A DNA stretch of 48,610 bases from Desulfurococcales archaeon (GTDB lineage Archaea > Thermoproteota > Thermoprotei_A > Sulfolobales > Ignisphaeraceae). The stretch covers positions 1-48,610 of the forward strand of contig JALWBS010000005.1 in assembly GCA_027037025.1 (NCBI GenBank), written 5' to 3'. The stretch's first letter is position 1; each line of letters opens with the position of its first letter. A program made the position numbers and the translations under genes. This document shows positions 2,773-48,610 of this stretch, piece by piece. The notes beneath the pieces were generated by a model, which was given only the letters and a program-made list of their open reading frames with translations, did no database searches and was not told where the DNA came from.

Positions 2773-2957
2773 GTTCGCACCAGCTCAAAGATGGTGTGGT
2801 CTTGCTATAAAACGCTGGGTAGTTTCTATACTCAATTAGTTCTAATAGTTGCAGAGATCCTATTATATATCTAATATATAGGAGAGAGCTATGGTGACTG
2901 CGCGGTGGATCCGAGTAATCGTTCCGCTTATATATCCCGCTAGATAGATCTGCTCCG

Positions 2958-4585: not shown

Positions 4586-4654
4586 GAGGATGAATATGCG
4601 TGTAGATTCCTTAAGAAGATTCAGAGCGGTGATTTCGAAGGTCTTGACAGATAC

Positions 4655-7307: not shown

Positions 7308-7370
7308 ATGGGTCTGAAGCGTGCGGGGATATATGGCGGAAACGCGCGTTTTCACGGAGGTGCGGGGAGC

Positions 7371-8016: not shown

Positions 8017-8382
8017 ATGGTTAAGGCATTGATAGAGGTTGAGTGCCCCAAGTGCCGAGCTATACACATCGTCAATCTAGATAAGTTCGAGAGCAAGATA
8101 GCCATTAGCTGTAGCTGCGGAGCGCTGTTCGTAGTGAAGGTGTCGATCACTGTAAAGGACTTCAGCGAGCTACTATCGATGCTAAACGAGTTCGAGCAGT
8201 GGCTTAGAGAGGAGAAGAAGCTTGCTAAAGACACCGCTAGAGCGTATGCTAGAAGCATAGAGAGCTGGATACGTAGAGGTAGCTACCCTAGATGCACTGC
8301 TCCGTTCGATCACTTCAAAGAGTTTCTAGAGAAGAAAAAGGGTTGGAACCCAGCGCTAGCGAGGTACGCACTCGAAATCTAG
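8017..8382 (+). CDS. zinc-ribbon protein with integrase SAM-like (core-binding-like) segment
   Basis: CPKC...CSCG zinc ribbon. FEQWLREEKKLAKDTARAYARSIESW resembles the N-terminal SAM-like domain of tyrosine recombinases. Starts 2 nt after the recombinase stop. Confidence 0.5.
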   Translation: MVKALIEVECPKCRAIHIVNLDKFESKIAISCSCGALFVVKVSITVKDFSELLSMLNEFEQWLREEKKLAKDTARAYARSIESWIRRGSYPRCTAPFDHFKEFLEKKKGWNPALARYALEI

Positions 8383-9791: not shown

Positions 9792-9853
9792 GCCACCGAG
9801 AAGCTGAGGAAACAAGGAAACAAAAGGATTTATGTAATGTATCCTTCGTGCTT

Positions 9854-36800: not shown

Positions 36801-37208
36801 CTACTTGTTCTTGGACTGCGCCTTCAACAACCTCCGTATGTGCTTCATCTTCTTCGCCTCGTAGAAGTGTGGAGAGAGCATCGCCGTTAGGTAATCCAGC
36901 AGGTGTCGCTTTCTCAGTATCCTAGACATTCTGAGGATAGCTGGGTAGCTAATTCCGTAGAACTCACAGCCGGTTAGCTTAGCACCTATCGTTTTTAGGT
37001 AGAGCAAGACGATGCATCGGTAGATGCTGTCCTTCGTCCTCAGGAACCTAGCTACATCGGATTCCAGTATGAGCCACTCGAACACCTTCATCCTCGGCTT
37101 CATCCACTCCGCTATGTCGTTCGGTAGCGTTAGCCGTATAACCCTTTTGAACCCTAGCTTCACTACCAGCTCCCTCCCGTTCAGCTCCACGCTCTTCTTG
37201 AACCCCAT
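36801..37208 (-). CDS. putative winged-helix-like DNA-binding protein (paralog of 6851..7234)
   Basis: ATG 37208 preceded by AGGGGACACA. Its first 160 nt overlap the 3' tail of 37048..37608 in another frame. Confidence 0.55.
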   Translation of the reverse strand: MGFKKSVELNGRELVVKLGFKRVIRLTLPNDIAEWMKPRMKVFEWLILESDVARFLRTKDSIYRCIVLLYLKTIGAKLTGCEFYGISYPAILRMSRILRKRHLLDYLTAMLSPHFYEAKKMKHIRRLLKAQSKNK

Positions 37209-37608
37209 TGTGTCCCCTAATGTACTCAACGAGATCGCTTGCTATTAAGCTCATCCACGTTAATACCCTTCCCGCGTGGTGCGTGAGCAGATGATTGGAC
37301 GCTGCGGCGGCTCCATAGAGCTTTCTCCCGCATAGCTTGCATCTGTAGCAACCGTCCTCGGTCTTGTCGAATACGGGCTCTATCGAGCTTGTGAGCTTGA
37401 GGAGGATGTCGGTGTACTTAGACATGACGCGCCATCTTCTATCCGATTCCAAGCTACTGAGGATCGACCTAACCGTGTTCTTCGAAACCGATAGCGCGTG
37501 GGCTATCTCGCTCGGTGACAAACCCTTTATGTATCGGAGCTCGACCACCTTGAAGAACAGATCTTGGTTAGTCAAGCGACGAACCACGAACTGCTTTAAG
37601 AACTTCAT
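37048..37608 (-). CDS. HTH + C2H2 zinc-finger DNA-binding protein (paralog of 2958..3452)
   Basis: LSPSEIAHALSVSKNTVRSIL HTH and YRCKLCGRKL...HLLTHH zinc finger. ATG 6 nt downstream of leader motif 37615..37629. The last ~50 codons are low-complexity and overlap 36801..37208. Confidence 0.7.
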   Translation of the reverse strand: MKFLKQFVVRRLTNQDLFFKVVELRYIKGLSPSEIAHALSVSKNTVRSILSSLESDRRWRVMSKYTDILLKLTSSIEPVFDKTEDGCYRCKLCGRKLYGAAAASNHLLTHHAGRVLTWMSLIASDLVEYIRGHNGVQEERGAEREGAGSEARVQKGYTANATERHSGVDEAEDEGVRVAHTGIRCS

Positions 37609-37816
37609 GCGGATCCCCGTGAGAAAAAGATGATTTTATCTCGATGCACCTACGGATCTCTCCCCACTCGTGGCACAGAACCATGAGGGCTCGATAAGCC
37701 TCGTTCTCGCTGATGAGGTTGTAGGAGAGCAGATCCTTTATGCGTCTAAGAATCTTCTTCCGCTCCTCCTCCGCTTCCTCATCGATCCACTTCTCCAAGT
37801 AGCTAATCATATCCAT
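37568..37816 (-). CDS. hypothetical small protein
   Basis: Starts 3 nt after the stop of 37819..38724. Its 3' end reads through leader motif 37615..37629 (..SFSHGD..) and overlaps the next gene. Confidence 0.45.
   Translation of the reverse strand: MDMISYLEKWIDEEAEEERKKILRRIKDLLSYNLISENEAYRALMVLCHEWGEIRRCIEIKSSFSHGDPHEVLKAVRGSSLD
37615..37629 (-). promoter_or_regulatory. cassette leader motif copy
   Basis: Minus strand: CTTTTTCTCACGGGG-atccgc-ATG(37608). Confidence 0.75.
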
Positions 37817-37818
37817 GG

Positions 37819-38724
37819 CTACGCACCGGGTAGCCTCTTCTCCAACAGCATCTCGGATGCTAGCCTAGACATATCTCTGAAAACGTCGTAGTTCCTAGTC
37901 TCCGCAACGACCCTAGTAACGCTCTGGAAAGCCGTTGCCAAGCTATAGCCGTGCTTCTGCACGAACCTTCTGTAGCTCGACCTAAGTATGTAGGCAACGT
38001 ATCTAGGAACCTTCGCGGCGATGCCCTCTATCCAATCGTCGAGCTCCTGCGGCGAGAGCTCTATTCTAGCTAGCTCCGAAACCGAGTCGATTATCCACGT
38101 AGCCTCGTCGCTGAGCTTCGCAACCACCTCGTCCACGGCGCGGATAACGCTGAGCAGAACCTTCCGTAGCTCGCCTCGGTGCACAGTCCTCACGCTCGTA
38201 GCCATCCAGTTAGCGAGCATCTCGTTGCCGCACTCAGCGAACCTAACGATTGGATACACCTTTATGCTGTGAACACCGGTGTTAGCGTTCGAAACCGCGA
38301 CGTAGAACACGTTGTCGAACACCGTAACCACCCTCCACAGAAACACCGTTCTAGCGCTGAACCTCTTCACGTGATCCGGCTCGGCTTCTAGAAACCTGCT
38401 AACGGCATCGACGAGTATACGGTGAGGAACAGCCACGTAGCTATCGCTCGTAGCCCTAACAACGTAGAGCGCGCCGTCGAACATAACTAGGCATCTCAGC
38501 ATGAGGGGCTTCCTACTCACGCGCTCTATCAACGCCTTCTTGAATCTATCCGGGTTGCTAACCACATTGCTTCTACTCATGTTCACCAATCGCGCGAGCT
38601 GCGAGTAGCTACGTCCTTTAAACACGATTCTGGTACCATCCTTCGTCACGACGATGCTCCTCCTATACACAGTTACGGAGTCCACCCTATCCAGAACGAA
38701 GTCTACGAACGTGGGTCTCTCCAT
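37819..38724 (-). CDS. hypothetical protein (301 aa)
   Basis: ATG 6 nt downstream of leader motif 38731..38745. Confidence 0.65.
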   Translation of the reverse strand: MERPTFVDFVLDRVDSVTVYRRSIVVTKDGTRIVFKGRSYSQLARLVNMSRSNVVSNPDRFKKALIERVSRKPLMLRCLVMFDGALYVVRATSDSYVAVPHRILVDAVSRFLEAEPDHVKRFSARTVFLWRVVTVFDNVFYVAVSNANTGVHSIKVYPIVRFAECGNEMLANWMATSVRTVHRGELRKVLLSVIRAVDEVVAKLSDEATWIIDSVSELARIELSPQELDDWIEGIAAKVPRYVAYILRSSYRRFVQKHGYSLATAFQSVTRVVAETRNYDVFRDMSRLASEMLLEKRLPGA

Positions 38725-38730
38725 GGATCT

Positions 38731-38745
38731 CCCCCGTGGAAAAAG
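38731..38745 (-). promoter_or_regulatory. cassette leader motif copy
   Basis: Minus strand: CTTTTTCCACGGGGG-agatcc-ATG(38724). Confidence 0.75.
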
Positions 38746-38771
38746 AGGGCAGAGACTATAGTTATGGTCAT

Positions 38772-39893
38772 TTATGTTCGTTTTAGTCCTTTTAAGGCTA
38801 TGAGGTATGCTGATGCTGTGTGGCGATCAAGACCAAATCTCTTCATGATCTCGTCATGTTCCCTAGAATGCGTTGTGCCCTTAGGATCGACGTACCTCAC
38901 CTCCATAGCGTAGAGCGGTGCTTTCCACGCTATTCGCTCTATGATTGAGCTTCGGAACATCGAGACCTTCCAGTTCCACTTCCTCCCCCTTCTCTCACCA
39001 TTGCGTATCCAGTAGTACCTGAGATACCCAACTATCTCCGGGTTTTCCAGGAATATCGTTGAGACACCTGCGTGGTAGAGCCACTTCAGCATTCTGTGGA
39101 TTACCTCGCCTATGATGCTCCAAGCCCTCTTCCTCTTAACGCCCATGTGAGCCGCTCCATCAAGCCAGAAGGTTCTAATCATCCTGAGCTTACCGCCGGG
39201 AGAAACCACGGCGACGTCGAGACGATCAACGTTGACGTCTATCCCTGCAACGATGTCGCTGAGTGGATCGTCGTATCGCTTCATCACCTGGTAGTAGAGC
39301 TGGTAAGGCACCATAACTTGCATCTCACCAGCAACATGAAGACCATACTTACCCATTCCGTAGTCAGAGATGTAGATCCTTGCGGGGTAGCCAACGCGCT
39401 TGGCATTCGCCTCCGATATGAGCGTCTCGAGTAGTCGTCTGTACCCCTTCGGCACGACGTATCTGAGCTCTACAGTATCCGAACTCTTGTCGTACCAGAA
39501 GGTCAGAACCCTGGTTCTGCCTAGATCCACGAGCCTTATGTTTAGGTTGCCCCTAGCATGGGGCTCCCCATCGCTCTGAAACAGCAACCATTCCTTGAGC
39601 TCCAGATCCCGTACGTCGACACCCAGCGCTTTTGCGCTACGAAGCGTTGACCACACGAGCTTGAGCACCCCATCGACGTAGCGCCTATTAGGAAGCACAT
39701 CGTAGCACCTGGATCTCATAGCCTTGAGGAACCGCGTCTCAGGAAGCTCGGCTAGCACAAGCTCGCTCTTCACGACCATCAGCACGCGATGAGCAACGAT
39801 CTTCGACAGCCAGGCAGTGGAGAGCAGTCGCGAAGCGACGAGTCCATTCGCGTGGAAAGGCAGAGCAATAGTGACATACCTCGGGCTCTTCAC
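38772..39893 (-). CDS. tnpB: TnpB/OrfB-like RuvC-fold protein lacking the usual zinc finger
   Basis: Candidate RuvC triad: GIDVNVD, IFLENPE, GLDRHTASAYLIA. 373 aa. No CxxC...CxxC between the second and third motifs (VDPKGTTHSREHDEIMKRFG). GTG start about 21 nt downstream of a palindromic TATA. Confidence 0.65.
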   Translation of the reverse strand: MKSPRYVTIALPFHANGLVASRLLSTAWLSKIVAHRVLMVVKSELVLAELPETRFLKAMRSRCYDVLPNRRYVDGVLKLVWSTLRSAKALGVDVRDLELKEWLLFQSDGEPHARGNLNIRLVDLGRTRVLTFWYDKSSDTVELRYVVPKGYRRLLETLISEANAKRVGYPARIYISDYGMGKYGLHVAGEMQVMVPYQLYYQVMKRYDDPLSDIVAGIDVNVDRLDVAVVSPGGKLRMIRTFWLDGAAHMGVKRKRAWSIIGEVIHRMLKWLYHAGVSTIFLENPEIVGYLRYYWIRNGERRGRKWNWKVSMFRSSIIERIAWKAPLYAMEVRYVDPKGTTHSREHDEIMKRFGLDRHTASAYLIALKGLKRT

Positions 39894-39907
39894 GCTTCCC
39901 GACCATA

Positions 39908-39921
39908 GGGTATATATACCC
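39908..39921 (-). promoter_or_regulatory. perfect 14-bp palindrome GGGTATATATACCC (TATA box candidate for the TnpB-like gene)
   Basis: Centre lies about 21 nt upstream of GTG 39893, compatible with a leaderless or short-leader mRNA. Confidence 0.5.
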
Positions 39922-39941
39922 GAGAGTTATTAAACGTTGTA

Positions 39942-40021
39942 GTGACCCCCGCTGGCTCGCTGACCCCCCGGGATGAAGGGGCTGGCGGGGAGAAACCGCT
40001 GTGAACCCAGCTAGGCGACCC
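39942..40021 (-). other. GC-rich non-coding block upstream of the TnpB-like gene (possible structured RNA, IS end or protein-binding array)
   Basis: About 80 nt, visibly GC-richer than its surroundings. CCCCGC...GCGGGG can pair. Three copies of GTGA(A)CCC(CC) lie at 39942, 39961 and 40001, echoing the ATG-proximal part of the cassette leader. Confidence 0.25.
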
Positions 40022-40054
40022 TAAAAGAACCTAAAATATTGGGAATGACCCTAG

Positions 40055-40282
40055 CTAGGGGAGCGGTTGGGTACGAACCCGCTCTATCCTCAGCTTTATG
40101 TTTTCCTCTACGCAGTCGTAGAAAGCTGTAGCCTCTCTACACAGCTCGATCTCGTCGTAGTAATCCGGCTTCACGACGTAGACATCTCCGGATCGAGTCT
40201 TTATCACCACTTCGAACTCGCTTATCTTAACGCTCTCAACGTCCTTGAGAACTATGTCCCTATCGAGTTCGAGCACAGCCAT
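40055..40282 (-). CDS. hypothetical small acidic protein (cassette-array gene, 75 aa)
   Basis: ATG 5 nt downstream of leader motif 40288..40304. Confidence 0.6.
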   Translation of the reverse strand: MAVLELDRDIVLKDVESVKISEFEVVIKTRSGDVYVVKPDYYDEIELCREATAFYDCVEENIKLRIERVRTQPLP

Positions 40283-40287
40283 GGAAA

Positions 40288-40304
40288 CCCCCGTGAGAGA
40301 AAAA
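40288..40304 (-). promoter_or_regulatory. cassette leader motif copy
   Basis: Minus strand: TTTTTCTCTCACGGGGG-tttcc-ATG(40282). Confidence 0.75.
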
Positions 40305-40337
40305 TGTTTATTGGGGTTTGAGAACAGGGCATCGTAC

Positions 40338-40658
40338 TCACTTCGCCTTTCGCTCGCTGGCGCAGATCTCCTCTATCCTGCGCCTAACATCTTCGTGGAT
40401 CTCTAGCTTGGCTTCGACGTTGCACAGCGTTTCGAACATGTTGTCTAGGCACGTGATTAGATCGGTATCCCCTTTCTTCGCCGCTCTGTAGCACAGCGAC
40501 GCCATCGATAGGGTGCAGAGGTACTCCAACGTACCCTCTCTCTTCTTTTTCATCTCTGCTATCTCCCACAGGTGCTTGCACAGCGGGTGATCCTTAGCTT
40601 CTTCACATGCCTTCCTAGCGTTGAGAGCTATTTCATAGGCTAGGTTCGGGGGGATCAT
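40338..40658 (-). CDS. hypothetical Cys-rich helical protein (106 aa)
   Basis: Starts 3 nt after the stop of 40661..41392. Third gene of a motif-led three-gene unit. Confidence 0.55.
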   Translation of the reverse strand: MIPPNLAYEIALNARKACEEAKDHPLCKHLWEIAEMKKKREGTLEYLCTLSMASLCYRAAKKGDTDLITCLDNMFETLCNVEAKLEIHEDVRRRIEEICASERKAK

Positions 40659-40660
40659 AC

Positions 40661-41392
40661 CTAACCACCAAAAAGCTGAGCCGAGCTACGTAGCTTCTCC
40701 TTCACGGTGTCGAGGATCATCGACTCTATTCTCTGTCTCTCAACAACGTATCCAAACCTCTTCAAATCGTCCAGAACTTGATTGTGCTTCAACCCTACGT
40801 AGAACAGCACCGGGTCGAAGCATAGTCTAGCCTGCTTGTTCCTGACTATGAACGCCGCGCTCTTGAGCACGCCGTCGTACATAGCCCAGCTAGCGAGGTA
40901 GCTCATCCCAAGAACCGTGGGTGCACCACGTTCGGAGATGTACTTGTTCAGTATCTTCATCACCTCGCTCAGCTTGGCAACGGCGCTATCTCTGAGCTCG
41001 GCAATGGAGAACCCCACCATTAGCTGGATGCCGAGGTCTTCCATGCTACAAACGTCTAGCAGAACCGATACTCCTAGGGTTAGTAGCCTGAGCGATACGA
41101 AGCCGAACCTCTCCATCATGGCGTGTACCAGCGCTATCATGGTGAGAACGCTGTTGTTGTCGAACACACCGTGTAGCTCATCGACGAAGCTCATCACATC
41201 GTCTATCCTCTGCTCCCCGAACATCCTAGGTATTAGCCACGTCATCGCGTCGGTGGCTAGCTCAACATCCTCTTTCTTCACCTCTATCCCTAGCTTAGTC
41301 AAGGTATCCCTCGCTCTAGCGAAGAGATCCGCTACGGCGTCTCGCAGTTGCTTAGGTGCCTCACTCAACTTGGTACACCCTAACGTTCTCAC
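40661..41392 (-). CDS. hypothetical helical protein (243 aa)
   Basis: GTG start overlapping the 3' end of 41361..41585. No leader motif of its own. Confidence 0.55.
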   Translation of the reverse strand: MRTLGCTKLSEAPKQLRDAVADLFARARDTLTKLGIEVKKEDVELATDAMTWLIPRMFGEQRIDDVMSFVDELHGVFDNNSVLTMIALVHAMMERFGFVSLRLLTLGVSVLLDVCSMEDLGIQLMVGFSIAELRDSAVAKLSEVMKILNKYISERGAPTVLGMSYLASWAMYDGVLKSAAFIVRNKQARLCFDPVLFYVGLKHNQVLDDLKRFGYVVERQRIESMILDTVKEKLRSSAQLFGG

Positions 41393-41585
41393 CTGACTTG
41401 TCCCCTATCGCAACCACTCTACCCGCTATGACAACCACCTTGTCGCCGATTGTCTTGGTCTCGACGCTATCCTCGCCGAGCGCTGATAGGAACACCCTAG
41501 CCGCGATAGTCATATCCACCTTCCTCCACCTACTAAATCCTAGAACTTTGAGTATCTCCTCATCGCTTGGATCTGAGGAGACCAT
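41361..41585 (-). CDS. hypothetical small protein (74 aa)
   Basis: ATG 4 nt downstream of leader motif 41590..41600. Confidence 0.55.
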   Translation of the reverse strand: MVSSDPSDEEILKVLGFSRWRKVDMTIAARVFLSALGEDSVETKTIGDKVVVIAGRVVAIGDKSGENVRVYQVE

Positions 41586-41589
41586 GGAT

Positions 41590-41600
41590 CCCCCCGTGAA
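41590..41600 (-). promoter_or_regulatory. cassette leader motif copy (T-run missing)
   Basis: Minus strand: TTCACGGGGGG-atcc-ATG(41585). Confidence 0.6.
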
Positions 41601-41625
41601 TCAGTGGAGTAAGAGATCCATAAAA

Positions 41626-42294
41626 CTACGTGAGGTAGAGAACCATCACGGGCTTCTCCCTAACTACGAAGCCCAGAACCCTAGCCTTGGTAAAACCGTT
41701 CACTATGGGTAGTCGTACGCGAAGCTCGTTTCCATCGATACGCATCTCCACAGCCTCACCACCGAACTGGCGAAGCATCGATAGCAGAACCTTGGCTGGA
41801 AACCTAGAAACGATCGTGTCGATCTCCTTAACCAACCTCCTATACTCCTCGATCTGCCGCTTAACGAAGCTCTCGACCCTACGCAGGCTGTAGTACACCG
41901 CGTGGTACCTATCCCCATCGCTACGAATCTCGAAGCATATCGACGCAACGCTCTCATCGTCCTCGTCAAACACGTCGATGCACTCATCGCTCTCCAAAAC
42001 CTTGTCCTCGCCCACACCAGCTAACCTAGTCACCAACCCAGCGATCTCACCACGAATATCCACCTCAAGCTCTTGCATAGCCGCAACAACATCGCTACAG
42101 CCCTCCTCAGACCGACTACACTCCACCTCCAAACACTTGGCTCCAACAACTATCTTGGCACGTACACAGTCTTGGCTCTCCACAACATCGATGATCGCAT
42201 AGCTATCTCCCCTACGGTACTCTCTCAGCATAGACTCCACAGCATCACCAATCTTAGAAGGATCCAACGGTTCCCCATCTAGGAAAACCCTCAT
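41626..42294 (-). CDS. hypothetical acidic protein (222 aa)
   Basis: Start re-called to ATG 42294, 6 nt downstream of leader motif 42301..42316. The ORF-track extension to 42342 reads through the motif. Confidence 0.6.
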   Translation of the reverse strand: MRVFLDGEPLDPSKIGDAVESMLREYRRGDSYAIIDVVESQDCVRAKIVVGAKCLEVECSRSEEGCSDVVAAMQELEVDIRGEIAGLVTRLAGVGEDKVLESDECIDVFDEDDESVASICFEIRSDGDRYHAVYYSLRRVESFVKRQIEEYRRLVKEIDTIVSRFPAKVLLSMLRQFGGEAVEMRIDGNELRVRLPIVNGFTKARVLGFVVREKPVMVLYLT

Positions 42295-42300
42295 TCCGAA

Positions 42301-42316
42301 CCCCGTGAAGAAAAAG
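42301..42316 (-). promoter_or_regulatory. cassette leader motif copy
   Basis: Minus strand: CTTTTTCTTCACGGGG-ttcgga-ATG(42294). Confidence 0.75.
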
Positions 42317-42334
42317 AGCGTTGAAAATATAGAT

Positions 42335-42832
42335 CTAAGCACACCAATCCGTGGATCCGTGCTCCGGCGGCACGTTTGCGTAGCTGAGCACGAGTGCTAG
42401 AGCCATCGCCTTCCTTCTATCGGATCCATAGCACTGTATCTTGCAGTCGTAGACCTCGCCATCGATCTTCGCCCACGCTTGGCATCCGCGAGCCTCTTCG
42501 AAGCATATGATCCCTATCTCGATCCTCCCATCCCTCGAAACCAGCTTTATACGCCTAGACCCTTTGCCACCGAGTTCTTCCACCCTAACGTCATCGACCG
42601 CGAACAGCTTCTTAACCGCGGCAATCAGCTTATCGATGTTTATAGCGCTTATCCTACCCGGATCACGTACATAGAAATAGATAGCGCTAACACCAGCTCT
42701 ATAATCCCTCAACTCGTTCAGTAGCTGAAGAGCCTCTTCACCAAGGTTCTCGGCAACGACGTTCCTAGCGCTTTCTCTCATCTTCTCAATCTCTTTAAGA
42801 ACTTCATCTAACGAAACATCTTTGGGAGCCAT
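42335..42832 (-). CDS. hypothetical protein (165 aa)
   Basis: ATG 5 nt downstream of leader motif 42838..42853. Confidence 0.6.
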   Translation of the reverse strand: MAPKDVSLDEVLKEIEKMRESARNVVAENLGEEALQLLNELRDYRAGVSAIYFYVRDPGRISAINIDKLIAAVKKLFAVDDVRVEELGGKGSRRIKLVSRDGRIEIGIICFEEARGCQAWAKIDGEVYDCKIQCYGSDRRKAMALALVLSYANVPPEHGSTDWCA

Positions 42833-42837
42833 GTGAA

Positions 42838-42853
42838 CCCCCGTGAGAAAAAG
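42838..42853 (-). promoter_or_regulatory. cassette leader motif copy
   Basis: Minus strand: CTTTTTCTCACGGGGG-ttcac-ATG(42832). The 24 nt at 42830..42853 are identical to 48272..48295. Confidence 0.8.
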
Positions 42854-43093
42854 TCATTTTCTTCCCAATACGCATCGAACCGGAGACGGAATGACCTCCC
42901 TAGCAATTCTACACACGTCGAGCCGCACCCTCGAATCGTTGATGGGTAGCTCCACCATCAGCGTTAACCTACCGCAGATATCCCGCTTAAGCGATATCTT
43001 CGCACTTGGAAACGCCTCACGCAACCTGCGCTCCACCGTAGCCGCGTAGCGAAGAATAGTGAATCGATCGGTCGAGCGAATGTATATCCTCAT
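42854..43093 (-). CDS. hypothetical small basic protein (79 aa)
   Basis: Start set to ATG 43093 by analogy: a degenerate leader TTTTTATGGGGG-tgggt-ATG lies at 43099..43110. The ORF-track start is 43168. Confidence 0.45.
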   Translation of the reverse strand: MRIYIRSTDRFTILRYAATVERRLREAFPSAKISLKRDICGRLTLMVELPINDSRVRLDVCRIAREVIPSPVRCVLGRK

Positions 43094-43098
43094 ACCCA

Positions 43099-43110
43099 CC
43101 CCCATAAAAA
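43099..43110 (-). promoter_or_regulatory. degenerate cassette leader motif copy
   Basis: Minus strand: TTTTTATGGGGG-tgggt-ATG(43093). CAC is replaced by AT. Confidence 0.4.
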
Positions 43111-43121
43111 CAATTCTATCC

Positions 43122-43502
43122 TTATTCCTCGGTATAACCACAGCTATCCCTCCACCTCCCTTCCCCAACCTTCATCAAGACCTTCACCGCGGTTCCGTAA
43201 GTCTTAGACACGGCGAAGTACACGAGGTTGTACTGATCGTCGATATCCTTGCAAAGAAGAATCTCGATACCGTCATCGCTCTCGATCGCCGCAAGTCTAC
43301 GACCCGAAGCTACGTGCTTGATCGATTCGATGAGTACATCCACAAGAGAAACTCGCTTGACGCAGAACTCAGTATTCGAATCCACATCCCTTCCGCAGAT
43401 ATAGGTATCGGGAGCATCTAGGCTAAGACCCTCGATCGCAACCGGAAAAGGACTATCTATCCTAGCATACGCCACTTCCGTAGATCCCCTCTCAACCTCC
43501 AT
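43122..43502 (-). CDS. hypothetical protein (126 aa)
   Basis: ATG 43502, 5 nt downstream of leader motif 43508..43527. The ORF-track GTG 43508 lies inside the motif. Confidence 0.55.
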   Translation of the reverse strand: MEVERGSTEVAYARIDSPFPVAIEGLSLDAPDTYICGRDVDSNTEFCVKRVSLVDVLIESIKHVASGRRLAAIESDDGIEILLCKDIDDQYNLVYFAVSKTYGTAVKVLMKVGEGRWRDSCGYTEE

Positions 43503-43507
43503 ACACA

Positions 43508-43527
43508 CCCCCGTGAAGCGAGAAAAA
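43508..43527 (-). promoter_or_regulatory. cassette leader motif copy (6-nt insert)
   Basis: Minus strand: TTTTTCTCGCTTCACGGGGG-tgtgt-ATG(43502). Confidence 0.7.
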
Positions 43528-43531
43528 CGTG

Positions 43532-43885
43532 CTATGCACCGAGATCAATGATTACAATCGGTTTACCACCTACGGCACACTCAACAACGTTGTCGTAAGC
43601 ATACATCCTCACACCACCTAGCTTCTCGCAACACTCGCTAGGATCATTAGCATCTCTGCAAACCGGTATCGGAGCTCCACCACGCGGATCGTATATCCAG
43701 AACCTGAACCTCTTCACCAACTCATCTATGCGTCTCACCACATCATTGCTGGGCTCTCTACCCATCTCCACCGCATCCATGTAGCTCTTCAACGCTATCA
43801 GATAGTCTTCGGAAAGCGGACGAAGAATTTCAACCCTCTCTAGCCCTAGCACCCTAGCAATTTCGCAAGCTATATCCCGATCCAT
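43532..43885 (-). CDS. hypothetical protein (117 aa)
   Basis: ATG 43885 gives the usual 6-nt spacing from leader motif 43892..43912. An alternative ATG lies at 43891. Confidence 0.55.
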   Translation of the reverse strand: MDRDIACEIARVLGLERVEILRPLSEDYLIALKSYMDAVEMGREPSNDVVRRIDELVKRFRFWIYDPRGGAPIPVCRDANDPSECCEKLGGVRMYAYDNVVECAVGGKPIVIIDLGA

Positions 43886-43891
43886 GTACAT

Positions 43892-43912
43892 CCCCGTGTA
43901 GGGATGGAAAAA
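43892..43912 (-). promoter_or_regulatory. cassette leader motif copy (9-nt insert)
   Basis: Minus strand: TTTTTCCATCCCTACACGGGG-atgtac-ATG(43885). Confidence 0.65.
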
Positions 43913-44350
43913 CTATGGTTTGGGTAGGTCTAGACCTGTGAGCGTGGGTAGATCCACGAGTGTCTTCATCCAATCCGGGTAGTTGTCTTGGTACTCGAAC
44001 CGCTTACCGGTTTCCGTCGATGCTACCACGATCCTGTCATGACCAGCCGACTTCGAGTACTCGTAGATCACCGTAACGATATCGAATATTCCTTCACCGA
44101 TGATTCTAAGGACTAGCGCCTCGGCAATTCTTAGGAACTCAAGAGCTTTATCAACGTACTTAGCCTCGATGTATGCTATGCCATGATCGAACTCTATTCT
44201 ATCCGGATCCACTTGAACATCGTTGTACAGCAAATTGACGAGATTGTCTAGTACCGGCAATACATGGATTTCAATCCTAGTCCTTGTGTAACACACATTC
44301 ATATCGGATGTACACCAAAATACTCCCTCATCCGGTTCCGTCGCAACCAT
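43913..44350 (-). CDS. hypothetical protein (145 aa)
   Basis: ATG 44350, 5 nt downstream of leader motif 44356..44369. The ORF-track GTG extension to 44401 reads through the motif. Confidence 0.6.
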   Translation of the reverse strand: MVATEPDEGVFWCTSDMNVCYTRTRIEIHVLPVLDNLVNLLYNDVQVDPDRIEFDHGIAYIEAKYVDKALEFLRIAEALVLRIIGEGIFDIVTVIYEYSKSAGHDRIVVASTETGKRFEYQDNYPDWMKTLVDLPTLTGLDLPKP

Positions 44351-44355
44351 GTATA

Positions 44356-44369
44356 CCCCCGTGGAAAAC
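44356..44369 (-). promoter_or_regulatory. cassette leader motif copy
   Basis: Minus strand: GTTTTCCACGGGGG-tatac-ATG(44350). Confidence 0.7.
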
Positions 44370-44372
44370 GTT

Positions 44373-44786
44373 TTACCATACGGAGTACGGGATTTCACCA
44401 CAAGTTTCTTTCACGAGCATTCTCACGTATCCATAGGACATTAAGTACCGCGCCATCGACGCCAACATCATTTCGCATAGATGCTCGTTCTTCAGTAACC
44501 ACTCAATGATCTCAGTACATCGTCGAAGAACCGTGGCTGGAGGAAAACTCCTTCTAAACTCAATACAACACTTATGCACACCATTCTCTATCCTTATACG
44601 TATCAGAGCCAACGACATCTCGACAACGTTCTTTGGATATTCAACGAGTGATATCCTCGATGTCACCTTCTCAATTCTACAAGGCTCAGCAGATTTTACA
44701 ATGCCATTCTCTTCGATTAGCACAATCACTTTCACAAGCTCGTTCTCGCTTTCAACATGCCTAAACACATAGGTAGAGCTACCCAT
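44373..44786 (-). CDS. hypothetical protein (137 aa)
   Basis: ATG 44786, 8 nt downstream of leader motif 44795..44808. Confidence 0.55.
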   Translation of the reverse strand: MGSSTYVFRHVESENELVKVIVLIEENGIVKSAEPCRIEKVTSRISLVEYPKNVVEMSLALIRIRIENGVHKCCIEFRRSFPPATVLRRCTEIIEWLLKNEHLCEMMLASMARYLMSYGYVRMLVKETCGEIPYSVW

Positions 44787-44794
44787 TTTATTCA

Positions 44795-44808
44795 CCCCGT
44801 GGAAAAAG
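44795..44808 (-). promoter_or_regulatory. cassette leader motif copy
   Basis: Minus strand: CTTTTTCCACGGGG-tgaataaa-ATG(44786). Confidence 0.7.
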
Positions 44809-44815
44809 AATGTGT

Positions 44816-45445
44816 TTATCGAGGCTCTTTCTCGAAGGTGAAGCTAGCACACTTGAACACTCCATGAGCGTTGCACACGTAGTTACAGTAATAGAGATGT
44901 TCGTATATACACACATCGTCTAGGCACAGCTCGATCGTTCCGACACCGCTGTTGAAATCGAAGTCCTTGTAGTCCTTGGAGAAGTTCACTCCCCACGCCT
45001 CTCCAATAACGACAAATGGATAGGCATCTCCGCCACGGCTAGACTTTGCAAAGGCATCGATTCCGCACGACTCTAGGTATCGAGCAACTAATCTGAGTAG
45101 AATCGAATCATCTTCGAGGCTCAGACTAGCGATCGCATCAGTAAGCTTACCATCGCTCTTCACAACCTTTGGAACGATGAAGTACACCGATCCATGACCG
45201 TCGTATAGCTCGATAACCGCGAGATCCGTCTTCTCCTCAATCAATTTCCATAGCTCAGATACGTAGTTCCTGAGCTCGTCGTACATCTCATCGCTTAGAT
45301 CGTACTTCTCCCTCATCTCATCGAGTACGCCGTAAATCCCTTCATCGCTTAGAACCAGCGTTCTCCCACGAATCATGTTCTTCAGAATTTCCTTCGCGAA
45401 CTCGTATTTCAAATCGGTTGATTGAGATACAACTATTTGACTCAT
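44816..45445 (-). CDS. hypothetical protein (209 aa)
   Basis: ATG 45445, 6 nt downstream of leader motif 45452..45471. The ORF-track extension to 45544 is Cys/Ser-rich and overlaps the small TM ORF in another frame. Confidence 0.6.
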   Translation of the reverse strand: MSQIVVSQSTDLKYEFAKEILKNMIRGRTLVLSDEGIYGVLDEMREKYDLSDEMYDELRNYVSELWKLIEEKTDLAVIELYDGHGSVYFIVPKVVKSDGKLTDAIASLSLEDDSILLRLVARYLESCGIDAFAKSSRGGDAYPFVVIGEAWGVNFSKDYKDFDFNSGVGTIELCLDDVCIYEHLYYCNYVCNAHGVFKCASFTFEKEPR

Positions 45446-45451
45446 GTCAAA

Positions 45452-45471
45452 CCCCCGTGATCCATAAAAAC
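45452..45471 (-). promoter_or_regulatory. cassette leader motif copy (insert variant)
   Basis: Minus strand: GTTTTTATGGATCACGGGGG-tttgac-ATG(45445). Confidence 0.65.
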
Positions 45472-45638
45472 TAGCATCGACGTAGCTTGACACACTCCAC
45501 GAATATGCATAGAAACATTGTGAACAGCACAACGATGCCGCCAATCAACATGTATAGAGCCGCATCGACACCAATAACAAGACTAATGAGCAGAGCGATG
45601 ATGATGAGCACCACCGTAGCTAGAACAACGCTCCTCAT
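45471..45638 (-). CDS. small membrane protein (55 aa, MRSVVLATVVLIIIALLISLVIGVDAALYMLIGGIVVLFTMFLCIFVECVKLRRC), not in ORF track
   Basis: Hand-translated. The ATG overlaps the TGA stop of 45635..45913 (ATGA). Two hydrophobic helices. Its stop lies inside the next leader motif. Confidence 0.5.
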   Translation of the reverse strand: MRSVVLATVVLIIIALLISLVIGVDAALYMLIGGIVVLFTMFLCIFVECVKLRRC

Positions 45639-45913
45639 CCTCCCCTCCCCTTGAGATTTTCAAGTATTATTTTCCACCACATGCATGGGTGTTCTATCCA
45701 TATCCACCACCACTTGATCCAAAACGCTAAGTCATCGAGATCCCTACGTTGCTTCGGATCGTACCACACCTCCTTGGCATGTATATACGTGAAGATCTCT
45801 AACCACCATTGAATGCTATCGAAGAAAAGCACCGTTCGAGGAACGTGATATCCACGAGAGCGTTTTTCGAGCAATAAACGCCATGGATCAAAAGGTGTCC
45901 TTATAATCTCCAT
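45635..45913 (-). CDS. Trp-rich small protein ending in GRGG (92 aa)
   Basis: ATG 45913, 5 nt downstream of leader motif 45919..45931. Contains FWIKWWWIWIEHPCMWWKII and has the C-terminus LKGRGG. Confidence 0.55.
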   Translation of the reverse strand: MEIIRTPFDPWRLLLEKRSRGYHVPRTVLFFDSIQWWLEIFTYIHAKEVWYDPKQRRDLDDLAFWIKWWWIWIEHPCMWWKIILENLKGRGG

Positions 45914-45918
45914 TCTAA

Positions 45919-45931
45919 CCCCCGTGAAAAA
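45919..45931 (-). promoter_or_regulatory. cassette leader motif copy
   Basis: Minus strand: TTTTTCACGGGGG-ttaga-ATG(45913). Confidence 0.8.
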
Positions 45932-45935
45932 TGAG

Positions 45936-46496
45936 TTATGATATGTAGAGAAGTGTAGATGGACGAAGGGTTTGTAGTGGTGGCGGCGGAACAATCACGT
46001 CGCGGTGCGGTGATAGAGCGGCGATGGGGATGGATAGCATGCGATAGTCTAGATTAAACAACATGTATACTATCGGAATCACCTTGTCATTTATGGTCTT
46101 GCGAAACTCGATGCCAAACATGCCGATTAGCTTGAAGATGGCGTCGATCTCGTTGAACGCTACAAGATACTCACCAATCAACTCAGCAATTTTGCGCAGA
46201 GCCTCTTCAAGTTCACGCTGATAAACGCTCGTTATGATATACACCATGGACGAATACTCCCTTTCAACTGTTTTCTGAATCATGACGATAAGTTCGCTAC
46301 ATTGCTTCAACACAACATAGCTAATCGTTATTTTATAGATTCGCAATGTTCCATGTGGAACAACGATCGATAATGAGCATTTGCGATCACTGCAATAATG
46401 ATCGACATAGCCAACGTATGTCGAAACCTCATGGATTTTCTCGAAGTAATTACATAGCTGTGAAAACACGTTATACAATGGATCCAGAGGTTTCAT
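45936..46496 (-). CDS. hypothetical protein (186 aa)
   Basis: ATG 46496, 5 nt downstream of leader motif 46502..46515. Confidence 0.6.
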   Translation of the reverse strand: MKPLDPLYNVFSQLCNYFEKIHEVSTYVGYVDHYCSDRKCSLSIVVPHGTLRIYKITISYVVLKQCSELIVMIQKTVEREYSSMVYIITSVYQRELEEALRKIAELIGEYLVAFNEIDAIFKLIGMFGIEFRKTINDKVIPIVYMLFNLDYRMLSIPIAALSPHRDVIVPPPPLQTLRPSTLLYIS

Positions 46497-46501
46497 AAAC
46501 A

Positions 46502-46515
46502 CCCCCGTGAAAAAG
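46502..46515 (-). promoter_or_regulatory. cassette leader motif copy
   Basis: Minus strand: CTTTTTCACGGGGG-tgttt-ATG(46496). Confidence 0.8.
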
Positions 46516-46580
46516 AATGCAATTCAACGCTATTAAATAAAAATAAAATTTGTTTTGGATGGAAAGAGGATTTAGAGATG

Positions 46581-46853
46581 TTATCCGGCGATATCGAGCT
46601 TTTCAACACGGATAGTAATATTCTCGTTTCTCGATCTTAACTCGTTGATCTTCTGCTCGAAGTCCATCGGACTAACAGGGTTGTCATTTACGAACACACG
46701 TATCTTGCTCCAACCCTTGGATCTAGCAATTTCAATGATTTTCTGCTTTATTTCGCTAGGACTCATCCCTCGAATGCTGATCTCTTCATTTTCTACTACT
46801 AGTTTTTCAGACGGTGTTATGTTCCAAGTTTGTTCTACATTCCATTCACTCAT
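46581..46853 (-). CDS. small protein with beta-grasp (ThiS/MoaD/ubiquitin-like) sequence pattern and C-terminal Gly (90 aa)
   Basis: ATG 46853, 8 nt downstream of leader motif 46862..46874. ...KLVVENEEISIRGMSPSEIKQKIIEIARSKGWSKIRVFVNDNPVSP...NENITIRVEKLDIAG ends exactly at Gly. Confidence 0.55.
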   Translation of the reverse strand: MSEWNVEQTWNITPSEKLVVENEEISIRGMSPSEIKQKIIEIARSKGWSKIRVFVNDNPVSPMDFEQKINELRSRNENITIRVEKLDIAG

Positions 46854-46861
46854 ACCCCACA

Positions 46862-46874
46862 CCCCCGTGAAAAA
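46862..46874 (-). promoter_or_regulatory. cassette leader motif copy
   Basis: Minus strand: TTTTTCACGGGGG-tgtggggt-ATG(46853). Confidence 0.8.
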
Positions 46875-46884
46875 TAATAGAGTG

Positions 46885-47082
46885 TTAATCGATTTGTTTT
46901 AGTGCATCGAGAATTTGGCGATGCACTTCATGAGATATCGGTACCTCGATCTCCTTCGATGGTAGTACAATAACTAGTTTGCTGGATACAATGCGAATTA
47001 TTGGATAGTTACCGTTGCACGCCGGCATTAATACCAGTTCACCATGTTTATTATCGATACACAAGCCGTACTTGCATTTCAT
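46885..47082 (-). CDS. hypothetical small protein (65 aa)
   Basis: ATG 5 nt downstream of leader motif 47088..47100. Confidence 0.5.
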   Translation of the reverse strand: MKCKYGLCIDNKHGELVLMPACNGNYPIIRIVSSKLVIVLPSKEIEVPISHEVHRQILDALKQID

Positions 47083-47087
47083 ACAAA

Positions 47088-47100
47088 CCCCGTGGAATAG
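47088..47100 (-). promoter_or_regulatory. cassette leader motif copy (T-run degenerate)
   Basis: Minus strand: CTATTCCACGGGG-tttgt-ATG(47082). Confidence 0.6.
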
Positions 47101-47113
47101 GCAACGAGCGGGG

Positions 47114-47134
47114 TATACATATAATATATGTATA
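47114..47134. promoter_or_regulatory. perfect 21-bp palindrome TATACATATAATATATGTATA flanked by G runs (TATA candidate)
   Basis: Arms at 47114..47123 and 47125..47134 are exact reverse complements. Lies about 35-50 nt upstream of ATG 47082. Confidence 0.45.
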
Positions 47135-47183
47135 GGGGGTGAATCGTTTGGTTGGAACCTAACTAGAATAAAGGGATTGAATT

Positions 47184-47197
47184 CCCGTGAAGAAAAA
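47184..47197 (-). promoter_or_regulatory. orphan cassette leader motif copy (no ORF behind it)
   Basis: Minus strand: TTTTTCTTCACGGG-aattcaatcc... No ATG follows. Lies 4 nt after the stop of the E2-like gene. Confidence 0.55.
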
Positions 47198-47200
47198 TGG

Positions 47201-48274
47201 TTAGAAATCGATGCATTTGTCTATGCTCACACCATCATCGTACAGATCGTTGAAGATTTCTGGAGTGTACGCCGATGTCGATGGTATCGATAGTATCTTC
47301 ACGATCTTGTCAATTATTGACCTTAGCACATCAGTGGTTAGTCTATCGTAAGACTTAAGAATTTCTCGCTCCGCAGATCCTAGACACACTATACCATCGT
47401 CACTTATGTTCGGATGATAATACTCCTTATCCTTGTACAGAAGGAAAGCGTCGCCTTTCACCTCTACTAGCGAGTAATGTTTCTCCGATATGTTGAATAC
47501 TAATGTTATTGTTTTTACCACTACCTTGATCGGTGGCACGGCTACTAAGCATCCCCTTCTATGGTTAGCGATGACATTCGTTTCTATCTCCTTCTCGATG
47601 CTGAACGTGATGATGAGCCTATCTTCCTCGGTTCTGATCTCCTCAATATTCAACTCTTTCGGAGATAAATCTATTGGTGGTATGGACGTTATGTACAATG
47701 GTAGATACCTCAGCTCATTCAAATATTCGAACGACAATCTTCTCAGCTCAAAGCGCTTGGTGATATCCGCTCCTAGAACCTTCAGCTTCAGCATCTTCAT
47801 AGCATTGACCGCAAATAACCATAGTGATGGCACTTTGTTATGCGTTATGTCGGATATCACAAAGGTGTTGCGCTTAGGATCGTAGCACATATATTCGGTA
47901 CAATAACCATGTTTTGTTCGCATATCGGTTGTGCACGGATGCCCTTCGTTGAAGATCCTAAGTATCTTATCGATATCGAATTCATCTTCTATTCTATGTT
48001 CGTAGATGTCGGTGCGAATGCCGTCAATGTAGCAGTATATCAGAACAGCGTTTCGCGGTATTTCTTTTAGCTCGCCGTGATTTATCACATACTTAATTCC
48101 TAGTTCTTTCAATTCCTTGGCGAACATCTCCACAAAGATTCTAGAATATTCGTAATCGGTGTGCACTATGCCATTGGTTGTTATTATGTCTTCGCAATCT
48201 ACACACATCTTCCTTAGATACTCAACATCATCAGTATTAGTATCAGAATGAGTTTGGATTATCCATTCGGACAT
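47201..48274 (-). CDS. two-domain protein with C-terminal E2/UBC-like (ubiquitin-conjugating enzyme fold) domain (357 aa)
   Basis: ATG 48274, 5 nt downstream of leader motif 48280..48295. KEYYHPNISDDGIVCLG (His codon 47414..47416, Cys codon 47384..47386), then TTDVLRSIIDKIVKILSIPSTSAYTPEIFNDLY, parallels the UBC core YHPNIxxxGxICL...vlxSIxxLLxxPNxxxPxxxEiaxxy. A KRFELRRLSFEYLNEL helix lies at the domain start. Confidence 0.7.
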   Translation of the reverse strand: MSEWIIQTHSDTNTDDVEYLRKMCVDCEDIITTNGIVHTDYEYSRIFVEMFAKELKELGIKYVINHGELKEIPRNAVLIYCYIDGIRTDIYEHRIEDEFDIDKILRIFNEGHPCTTDMRTKHGYCTEYMCYDPKRNTFVISDITHNKVPSLWLFAVNAMKMLKLKVLGADITKRFELRRLSFEYLNELRYLPLYITSIPPIDLSPKELNIEEIRTEEDRLIITFSIEKEIETNVIANHRRGCLVAVPPIKVVVKTITLVFNISEKHYSLVEVKGDAFLLYKDKEYYHPNISDDGIVCLGSAEREILKSYDRLTTDVLRSIIDKIVKILSIPSTSAYTPEIFNDLYDDGVSIDKCIDF

Positions 48275-48610
48275 GTGAACCCCCGTGAGAAAAAGATAGG
48301 ATGTCGGATAGATTGAACACATGGTTCAATCTAAACGATCGGTATAGTGATATCATTAGATAGACAATTATCGAAGCCGCGAGAATAGCGGTAGCATCAT
48401 CATCGATCTTGCGATCGATAACCACGATCATGTAATTGCCGCGATCATATACACGCTTAACCTTCTCAACATCGCTTTTAGATACTAAGAATAACTTTAT
48501 CGATGGTCTGAACTCGCTGAACATCGCTAGTAGCAAATCCACATCATTGGTAATAACCACATCGATTTTGAACGGTCGCAACAACGATAGGTATTCATAG
48601 AATTGGTGAT
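48243..48610 (-). CDS. hypothetical protein, 5' end open at window edge
   Basis: The frame is open from 48608 downward (HQFYEYLSLLRPFKIDVVITNDVDLL...). The ORF-track TTG 48584 is only the first possible start. The 3' end reads through leader motif 48280..48295. Confidence 0.4.
   Translation of the reverse strand, partial: HQFYEYLSLLRPFKIDVVITNDVDLLLAMFSEFRPSIKLFLVSKSDVEKVKRVYDRGNYMIVVIDRKIDDDATAILAASIIVYLMISLYRSFRLNHVFNLSDILSFSHGGSHVRMDNPNSF
48280..48295 (-). promoter_or_regulatory. cassette leader motif copy
   Basis: Minus strand: CTTTTTCTCACGGGGG-ttcac-ATG(48274). Confidence 0.8.

Follow-up and report, generated by a model that had tools for sequence, protein, structure and literature searches.

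A repeated gene-start motif in an archaeal virus contig

The DNA stretch analysed here (designated "the window") corresponds to the 48,610 nucleotides (nt) of contig JALWBS010000005.1 from the Desulfurococcales archaeon assembly GCA_027037025.1, and represents a large archaeal virus, of tailed-spindle-like type, that stems from a vent-type metagenome. One block of the window, encompassing approximately 20 orphan genes on the minus strand, is punctuated by a near-invariant motif which consists of a T-run, followed by CACGGGGGT and, 13 bases on, by a start codon. An earlier note on this DNA had listed a series of such elements, and the 17 CACGGG cores that are present on the minus strand between 37621 and 48287, all co-oriented with the genes, match every one of its positions, including that of an orphan copy (47189).

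The number of copies greatly exceeds that expected by chance. The sequence CCCCCGTG is found 11 times on the plus strand as compared to 0.58 expected from shuffled sequences, and the pattern CCCCGTG-N0-10-GAAAA occurs 10 times as compared to 0.04 expected. Sixteen of the 17 CACGGG cores are located 12-16 nt before an ATG that opens an open reading frame (ORF) of 65-357 codons. The distance from the first C of CAC to this ATG is 13 nt in 11 of the 16 gene-linked copies of the window (the second ATG at 43885 being counted), the others displaying distances of 12, 14, 14, 15 and 16 nt. The array runs past the end of the window, as contig L122 adds a further copy, TTTTTCACACGGGGGTAGAATTG, with a TTG start at +13. 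In approximately 10 cases the annotated ORF extends N-terminally through the motif, in line with what the earlier note had pointed out.

Outside the block, CACGGG occurs five times on the minus and twice on the plus strand, in no case associated with a T-run or with a correctly placed ATG. A position-weight-matrix scan of the window gave matches that were confined to the block, apart from one weak look-alike on the plus strand at 7353, so that the claimed restriction to the block, as opposed to the other 37 kb, is upheld. The look-alike (7353-7373) reads TTTTCACGGAGGTG-N8-GTG, begins 18 nt before this GTG inside an annotated resolvase ORF (7308-8015), and has a canonical GGAGGTG instead of the G-run. 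Judged from the motif-like prefix and this canonical Shine-Dalgarno (SD) site, the sequence suggests that the true start of the resolvase is the GTG at 7371.

Copies of the motif along the array

In the current work, copies located at the junction between two closely spaced genes are referred to as junction copies, and those preceded by a long gap or an AT-rich box as post-promoter copies. All features described in this section are located on the minus strand and are given in the direction of the genes, i.e. from the window end inwards.

The first junction copy, TTTTTCTCACGGGGGTTCACATG (48272-48294), opens a 357-amino-acid (aa) ORFan (47201-48274). Eleven nt past the stop codon of this gene lies the orphan copy TTTTTCTTCACGGGAAT (47181-47197), which exhibits a decayed G-run and is not followed by a start codon. 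The 118-nt gap after the 357-aa gene also contains, between the orphan copy and the next one, a perfect 21-nt AT palindrome of TATA-like appearance, TATACATATATTATATGTATA (47114-47134), which ends approximately 20 nt upstream of the CAC at 47094 and could represent a promoter or a protein-binding site. The corresponding post-promoter copy, CACGGGGTTTGTATG (47080-47094), is devoid of a T-run and opens a 65-aa gene (46885-47082). It is followed by a junction copy with a spacing of 16, TTTTTCACGGGGGTGTGGGGTATG (46851-46874), which precedes a 90-aa gene, and then by an AT-rich box resembling a TFB-recognition element (BRE) and TATA box, ATTTTATTTTTATTTAATAG (46530-46549), positioned 21-40 nt upstream of the CAC at 46509 in the copy TTTTTCACGGGGGTGTTTATG (46494-46514) of a 186-aa gene.

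A run of junction copies then follows. The copy TTTTTCACGGGGGTTAGAATG (45911-45931) precedes a 92-aa gene which is overlapped by the following 55-aa gene (45471-45638), the latter being equipped with a plain GGAGG site. The copies TTTTTATGGATCACGGGGGTTTGACATG (45443-45470), TTTTTCCACGGGGTGAATAAAATG (44784-44807) and TTTTCCACGGGGGTATACATG (44348-44368) precede genes of 209, 137 and 145 aa, respectively, TTTTTCCATCCCTACACGGGGATGTACATG (43883-43912) has a second ATG at +13, and TTTTTCTCGCTTCACGGGGGTGTGTATG (43500-43527) precedes a 126-aa gene. The copy that had been classified as degenerate, TTTTTATGGGGGTGGGTATG (43091-43110), is real; its CAC is replaced and it precedes a 79-aa gene. The next junction copy (42830-42852) belongs to a 165-aa gene; when the C ahead of it is included (42830-42853), its 24 nt are the same as those of 48272-48295, as previously reported.

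Further along, the copy TTTTTCTTCACGGGGTTCGGAATG (42292-42315) precedes a 222-aa gene and has CTATATTTT 17-25 nt upstream. A post-promoter copy (41583-41625), composed of a TAGTTTTATGG box, 20 nt and CACGGGGGGATCCATG, heads a unit of three genes (41585-40338); those after the first abut or overlap and are not preceded by the motif. The junction copy TTTTTCTCTCACGGGGGTTTCCATG (40280-40304) precedes a 75-aa gene. The array is then interrupted (38772-40050) by a 373-aa gene that lacks the motif but has a TATA-like box of its own and is preceded by a GC-rich stretch, and resumes with the junction copy TTTTTCCACGGGGGAGATCCATG (38722-38744) of a 301-aa ORFan. The last copy, TTTTTCTCACGGGGATCCGCATG (37606-37628), precedes a gene (37048-37608) encoding a helix-turn-helix (HTH; sigma-70 region 4-like) and C2H2 zinc-finger protein, which is therefore itself a carrier of the motif, as had been stated.

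With the exception of this HTH and zinc-finger protein, the array genes are ORFans. Searches against Pfam and NCBIfam did not assign any array protein to a family except for the HTH, and the 301-aa protein retrieved no homologue but itself among 5.8 billion proteins. No paralogues were found within the array, along which the GC content drifts from 0.54 to 0.41. The array genes that lack a motif overlap or abut the preceding gene (45471-45638, 40661-41392, 40338-40658 and 37568-37816), the one further motif-less gene being the interrupting one (38772-39893). The 373-aa product of the latter did not match any Pfam or PDB entry and displays a faint C-terminal similarity to Cas12f2/TnpB (E 0.09); this gene may be an inserted mobile element. 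As regards the HTH/zinc-finger ORF in its annotated form (36801-37608), the last approximately 60 residues resemble low-complexity read-through, and approximately 160 nt overlap with a 135-aa ORF whose start lies at 37208 in a different frame, so that its true end is uncertain.

In both the ENA and the Logan assembly of the same sample, the array region (43.7-48.6 kb; contigs L122, L123 and L218) is fragmented, with contigs of 1.8-3.6 kb as compared to 40-54 kb for those that cover the remainder of the virus, which suggests repeats or strain-level variation within the array.

A second array on an unrelated contig

An exact-pattern scan of JGI metagenomes yielded 21 single matches and one contig, Ga0256842_1004094 (9.3 kb; here L196), which harbours 24 copies of CACGGGG, all on the same strand. 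Nineteen of these lead genes, with the ATG at 13 nt (13 copies), 14 nt (three copies) or 15 nt (three copies). No protein or DNA similarity was detected between L196 and the window or any of the relatives that were fetched, and the two arrays do not have a single gene in common. The recognisable genes of L196 encode a MoxR-like ATPase and a DUF2201 metallopeptidase/VWA protein; in addition, L196 specifies a small C2H2 zinc-finger protein (2774-3031), barely similar to that of the window (E 0.088).

When both arrays are pooled, the distance from CAC to the start codon is 13 nt in 24 of the 35 gene-linked copies and 12-16 nt in the remainder. CACGGGG is invariant in all 35; the next base is G in 30 and the base following that is T in 32, while the two bases preceding CAC are never G. 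Considering that two viral contigs without detectable homology share such a rigid signal, a constraint imposed by a common host lineage or a common factor is indicated.

L196 further contains four related promoter-like modules of approximately 90 nt (2046-2135, 2680-2775, 4060-4160 and 4553-4672), each with the order: orphan motif copy, CCGTTGTT...CCTTTATTTTTACA, 29-48 nt, and a working motif copy. These modules look like duplicated promoter cassettes. A tandem core is present at 981/991 and an 11-codon mini-ORF at 4672. Directly upstream of the array and downstream of a AAAGGTTTATTAA box, 616 nt (120-735) display a GC content of 73-77 %, as compared to 42-49 % in the rest of the contig, and fold as a chain of approximately 15 near-perfect hairpins (minimum free energy -466 versus -363 kcal/mol for shuffled sequences, z = -19.9), the stems of which hold CACGGGG three times and its complement once. 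No Rfam match was obtained for this region, which could represent a structured RNA, an origin or terminal-repeat DNA.

The motif is not a generic signal

The earlier note had considered that the element might turn out to be a generic ribosome-binding site or promoter, found ahead of most genes of the host or of related elements. The matrix was applied to relatives of the virus (traced via its ATPase and a fibre-like protein) and to candidate host contigs, and pattern searches were extended to 185,579 species genomes; a multi-copy signal was not encountered in any of these. No match to the matrix was present in the examined parts of the relatives L124 (around its ATPase gene), L125, L127 and L129 or on the contigs L141 and L142 of metagenome-assembled genomes (MAGs), and those parts of the relatives that are syntenic with the window are free of the motif. 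L130, a candidate host contig from the same sample as the window, gave a single match, within a gene, whose score of 11.1 lies below the training minimum of 13.2.

In IMG/VR, a 14-base pattern returned only scattered single matches among the matches listed, and an 18-base pattern returned 10 scattered single matches and no array. The 18-base pattern matched 53 times in the 185,579 species genomes, each time singly and in unrelated organisms, with no genome containing two. A literature search for the motif string retrieved nothing relevant. The composite is thus not a generic genome-wide signal in any of the organisms represented, among which the host itself may not be included.

The T-run follows gene ends and the G-run precedes gene starts

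The two halves of the motif can be separated. Across both arrays, a T5 within 16 nt upstream of CAC is present in 20 of 23 junction copies, as opposed to two of 10 post-promoter copies (p = 4e-4). The distance from the upstream stop codon to CAC is 6-20 nt in most junction copies, so that the T-run comes after the stop as in an oligo-U terminator, while 0 to 9 nt separate the T-run from CAC. Conversely, orphan copies, which lack a start codon and are located at the ends of gene runs, have retained the five-G run in only two of six cases, versus 30 of 35 gene-linked copies (p = 0.015). Since T5 goes with stop codons and the G-run with starts, the T-run behaves like a mark of gene ends, and CACGGGGGT like a mark of gene starts.

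Sense-strand runs of four or more T's are scarce inside the genes themselves. L196 genes contain five of these, as compared to 16 expected (none of 300 codon shuffles being as low), and the window array genes contain 13, as compared to 20.8 expected from codon shuffles (p 0.027). Sense-strand runs of five or more G's are also depleted inside array genes relative to codon shuffles, A-runs not being depleted. Both runs therefore look like reserved signals that the array genes otherwise avoid. The proposal that T5 may act as an oligo-T terminator is supported by its association with upstream stops and by the scarcity of T-runs within the array genes.

The G-run occupies the Shine-Dalgarno position

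Relative to the start codon, the G-run is located at -10 to -6, which is the place of GGTGA, GAGGTG or GGAGG in the non-array genes of the window and its relatives. GGGGGU can form a duplex with ACCUCC at the 3' end of 16S rRNA, which includes one G.U pair. The median duplex energy calculated with the canonical tail GAUCACCUCCU, which may not be that of the host, is -10.0 kcal/mol for the window array and -10.4 kcal/mol for L196, versus -7.9 kcal/mol for non-array genes, and the range of energies is much narrower in the arrays than in the non-array genes. G4-5(T) sites also precede four of 16 genes on L130 and two of 15 genes of Hyperthermophilic Archaeal Virus 2 (HAV2). An example on L130 is CACGGGGT, located 14 nt before the TTG start of a phosphoglycerate mutase gene (CCACGGGGTGGGATC-TTG). 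The suggestion that the G-run may function as an SD site is thus strengthened by its position, by the uniformly strong predicted duplex, and by the occurrence of comparable sites on L130 and in HAV2.

Promoter and RNA-folding tests

Two further roles that had been envisaged, i.e. a promoter or initiator element for each gene and a structured RNA site, fared less well. Non-array genes and relatives possess TATA boxes approximately 33-40 nt before the ATG. When the copies were aligned on CAC, no composition signal was seen at TATA distance, and 11 of 13 window junction copies as well as most of those of L196 lack an AT-rich 8-mer from -45 to -15, so that a core promoter is not apparent for most copies. 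TATA-like boxes precede only the window copies at 47094, 46509, 42307 and 41598, where they end 20-24 nt before CAC, and four copies of L196. In the latter they are located 29-48 nt upstream of CAC, which places the motif inside the leader, with only its distance to the AUG being fixed. The T-run itself was considered as a TATA box and rejected on geometry, its centre being at approximately -17 from the ATG as compared to the expected -26/-27.

RNA folding of 40 copies gave energies that were no better than those of shuffled sequences (mean z -0.47), with nothing stable at 75 C. Rfam at gathering score returned no match and a tRNA scan was negative. A hairpin formed by a stop-proximal AACCCC and GGGGTT was also considered; it can be drawn for some L196 copies only, is not general and is unstable at 75 C. 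The junctions are devoid of inverted repeats and no integrase adjoins the array, which sets them apart from integron-like (attC) sites.

Interpretation of the motif

We favour, with moderate confidence, the interpretation that the motif combines an oligo-U attenuator between cistrons with a uniform and strong ribosome-binding site, and that it marks an accessory, probably early, class of genes. It would thereby constitute a bipartite signal for gene junctions, recognised mainly at the RNA level. The first part, T5 located 1-10 nt past the upstream stop, would be the usual oligo-U termination signal of archaea, which in this case would work as a leaky terminator or attenuator inside operons. 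The second part, CACGGGGGU, which starts 13 nt before the AUG, would be a ribosome-binding site that loads the small subunit at a fixed register. Given that the G-run is found at the same position as GGUGA/GAGGUG elsewhere, every orphan gene in the block would be provided with the same strong SD contact, and because only few copies follow a TATA-like box, the block would correspond to a handful of operons in which most copies are intercistronic. The signal, which is shared with at least one unrelated viral contig, would mark a distinct group of rapidly evolving accessory genes that are probably early or anti-defence ones.

Poly-U intergenic terminators with partial read-through are documented inside archaeal operons, and in Methanococcus such sites, with efficiencies of 30-80 %, tune operon expression in a manner dependent on aCPSF1 (PMC10450193, PMC8716108). 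In Thermoproteota, SD duplexes and the ribosomal protein eS26 are competitors for the exit channel of the mRNA (PMC11698992), and one may speculate that a uniformly strong SD could help viral messages to compete in this setting.

A number of observations weigh against this interpretation. SD sites are normally degenerate, yet CACGGGG does not vary in any of the 35 gene-linked copies, so that pairing with rRNA does not fully explain the consensus. The canonical 16S tail offers no pairing partner for the CAC prefix, and the distance to the start codon is conserved when measured from CAC, not from the 3' end of the G-run, as copies with G4, G5 and G6 are all found at 13 nt. A T5 at each junction of a 9-10-gene operon would cause strong polarity if termination were efficient. 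Moreover, the distance of 20-24 nt between box and CAC in four window copies also fits a transcription start site at CAC. A host 16S tail such as ...CCUCCGUG would account for CAC by pairing alone. Ordinary signals account for most of the motif, the unexplained remainder being the invariant CAC, which suggests an additional specificity factor. Because CAC is invariant and sets the register, it may be recognised by a specific reader, may pair with an extended host 16S tail, or may be the site at which the RNA is cut (at CA) or begins.

The first of these options leads to a tentative alternative, which we consider rather unlikely: the motif could serve as operator for a trans-acting regulator specific to this gene class (a viral protein, for instance one of the C2H2 zinc-finger or HTH proteins encoded in both arrays, or a small RNA) that reads U5-CACGGGGGU on mRNA or DNA. 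By analogy with T4 RegA, which acts on early mRNAs, or Aca8, which acts on rudivirus early promoters, such a regulator might switch translation or stability of the whole class, and an SD function may coexist with it. An invariant core of 7-9 nt, well beyond what SD pairing needs, would be expected of an operator, as would its confinement to L196 and, within the window, to a single class of genes, and the presence of the same motif at the head of two arrays of unrelated genes. Each array also encodes a small C2H2 zinc-finger protein, that of the window being HTH-fused and motif-bearing, and early/anti-defence genes of archaeal viruses are known to possess virus-specific consensus regulatory sequences with cognate repressors (PMC11065993). 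Against an operator stand the lack of dyad symmetry and of a conserved RNA fold, the marginal similarity between the two zinc-finger proteins, and the lack, elsewhere in the window, of any sequence that encodes an anti-motif RNA. In a bolder and equally doubtful version, U5-CACGGGGGU would be the address label of a dedicated expression system of unrelated vent viruses, in which a trans-acting factor (the viral zinc-finger/HTH protein, a host factor or a small RNA) reads CAC plus the G-run on the mRNA and controls translation or processing of an entire class of accessory genes, the junction at the same time permitting the exchange of orphan-gene cassettes.

It is improbable that each copy represents a compact, non-canonical promoter or initiator from which monocistronic mRNAs with a leader of 12-13 nt start at or near CAC, with T5 ending the previous transcript. 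The TATA boxes of non-array genes do place start sites near -11 to -13, which is where CAC is located, the boxes of the four window copies are at a compatible distance, and the presence of T5 before nearly every gene, combined with the avoidance of T-runs within genes, would suit such an arrangement. However, an AT-rich box is missing upstream of most copies, the L196 boxes place CAC within the leader, the T-run is too close to the ATG to serve as a TATA box, and genes for a viral RNA polymerase or for TBP/TFB were not seen.

An equally remote explanation is that the junction is primarily a recombination substrate (a cassette boundary, or similar to the PeSL element of T4-like phages discussed below) of approximately 20 nt, at which ORFans and promoter modules would be swapped between co-infecting viruses by homologous recombination. 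The motif bounds every unit, be it a gene or a promoter module; the four L196 modules lie between orphan and working copies, accompanied by the tandem core, and the same orphan-promoter-copy layout is found in the window (47197-47080). The unrelated gene content of the arrays, the absence of paralogues, the GC range of 0.41-0.54 and the breakage of the array in two independent assemblies are also in keeping with such exchange. Conversely, the two arrays do not share genes, no instance of gene swapping was observed, a primary function in expression is indicated by the constant spacing to the ATG and by the common orientation of copies and genes, and the resolvase is located 30 kb away from the array, beside which there is no integrase.

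The endonuclease aCPSF1 cuts preferentially at CA dinucleotides. We regard it as very unlikely that the motif is an RNA processing site at which a host endonuclease, with the beta-CASP protein aCPSF1 as candidate, cuts at CA after the U-tract to generate single-gene mRNAs that start at the ribosome-binding site. The succession of a U-tract and an invariant CA would fit, as would the role of aCPSF1 at U-tracts in archaeal 3'-end formation (PMC8716108) and the presence of an aCPSF1-type gene on L130, but CAC is kept in copies behind promoter-like boxes, where there is no upstream cistron to separate, and the spacing between T-run and CAC is variable.

Comparison with known systems

Two established types of signal, an oligo-U terminator and an SD site, come together in the motif, which falls outside the promoter-based families. 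It resembles the SD sites (GGUGA/GAGGUG/GGGGU) of Thermoproteota and their viruses with respect to the -10 to -6 position, the complementarity to 16S rRNA and the use at internal cistrons, and differs from them by its invariant 7-9 nt core, its CAC prefix, a register that is fixed by CAC, and its association with a single gene class.

The nearest described phenomenon is that of the consensus regulatory sequences of early/anti-defence genes in Sulfolobales viruses (Bhoobalan-Chitty et al. 2024, PMC11065993). Like those sequences, the motif is virus-specific, stands ahead of many small, unrelated and mostly orphan genes near a genome end, and is borne by an HTH-type gene. Those sequences are, however, strong BRE/TATA promoters of single genes, whereas the motif described here lacks a TATA box in most copies, is situated at the ribosome-binding site and occurs in packed operons with intergenic gaps of approximately 25-35 nt.

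A further likeness exists with PeSL of T4-like phages (PMC2839356, PMC4122927), a short composite end/start signal that is also repeated between orphan genes of a hyperplastic region, and the repeated regulatory modules within the L196 array extend this likeness. PeSL consists of a stem-loop terminator and a sigma-70 early promoter, in contrast to the oligo-T and ribosome-binding site of the present motif, in which a stem-loop is absent. Archaeal ioTTS sites, at which aCPSF1/FttA acts (PMC10450193, PMC8716108), share with the present arrays the sense-strand U-tracts in intra-operon gaps and the avoidance of T-runs inside genes; here, by contrast, nearly all junctions have a T5, which is joined to a fixed sequence further downstream, and termination is predicted. 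As for layout, the U-run and start-codon arrangement can also be set beside that of certain eukaryotic viruses. Poxvirus early genes are followed by TTTTTNT (T5NT) and then by a fixed motif directly at the next start codon. Poxviruses employ their own RNA polymerase and factors, for which no genes are present here, so that this likeness is an analogy only.

Within a block of orphan genes that otherwise defies annotation, the motif allows the correct start codons and the operon structure to be called from sequence alone. It also singles out a distinct class of genes, which are probably early/anti-defence, in uncultivated archaeal viruses, and thereby extends a regulatory-sequence approach which has so far been TATA-based. 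If a specific factor does read CAC, this would constitute a rare case of class-specific translational control in archaea. The motif could also become a tool, in the form of a compact and strong ribosome-binding site for expression in hyperthermophiles.

The virus and its relatives

The AAA ATPase of the window (15811-17262) displays 29-32 % identity to the ATPases of HAV2, the Sulfolobales viruses YNP1/YNP2 and Acidianus tailed spindle virus. Further products include a 1493-aa coiled-coil protein, a lectin-like protein of 845 aa, a DnaA-like protein, the resolvase and a CCA-adding enzyme. No DNA similarity was found to known phage and archaeal-virus records, and protein scans of IMG/VR with the window ATPase and with the MoxR-like ATPase of L196 gave no matches. 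The same virus is present in Logan run SRR13853570 and in ENA assembly ERZ23491340. Its nearest relative is the 75-kb contig Ga0072504_101399 (L124) from an East Pacific Rise chimney metagenome, which is syntenic over 11-27 kb of the window and whose ATPase is 60 % identical.

As HAV2 carries ISDka2, Desulfurococcales-type hosts are indicated for this virus group. The viral fibre-like protein (34190-35926, minus strand; approximately 578-584 aa) has a domain in common with proteins of 771-778 aa on archaeal MAG contigs, with 61 % identity over 21-28 % of its length. These partner proteins, which are of cell-surface type, are encoded at L130:10001-12337, L141:4569-6884 and L142:3756-6071, and it is via this shared domain that L130 is a candidate host contig.

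CCA-adding enzymes of Archaea are normally of class I. The enzyme encoded by the window (8379-9815, minus strand) belongs to class II, i.e. the bacterial/eukaryotic type, with PolyA_pol head, RNA-binding and HD domains, in what is otherwise an archaeal virus.

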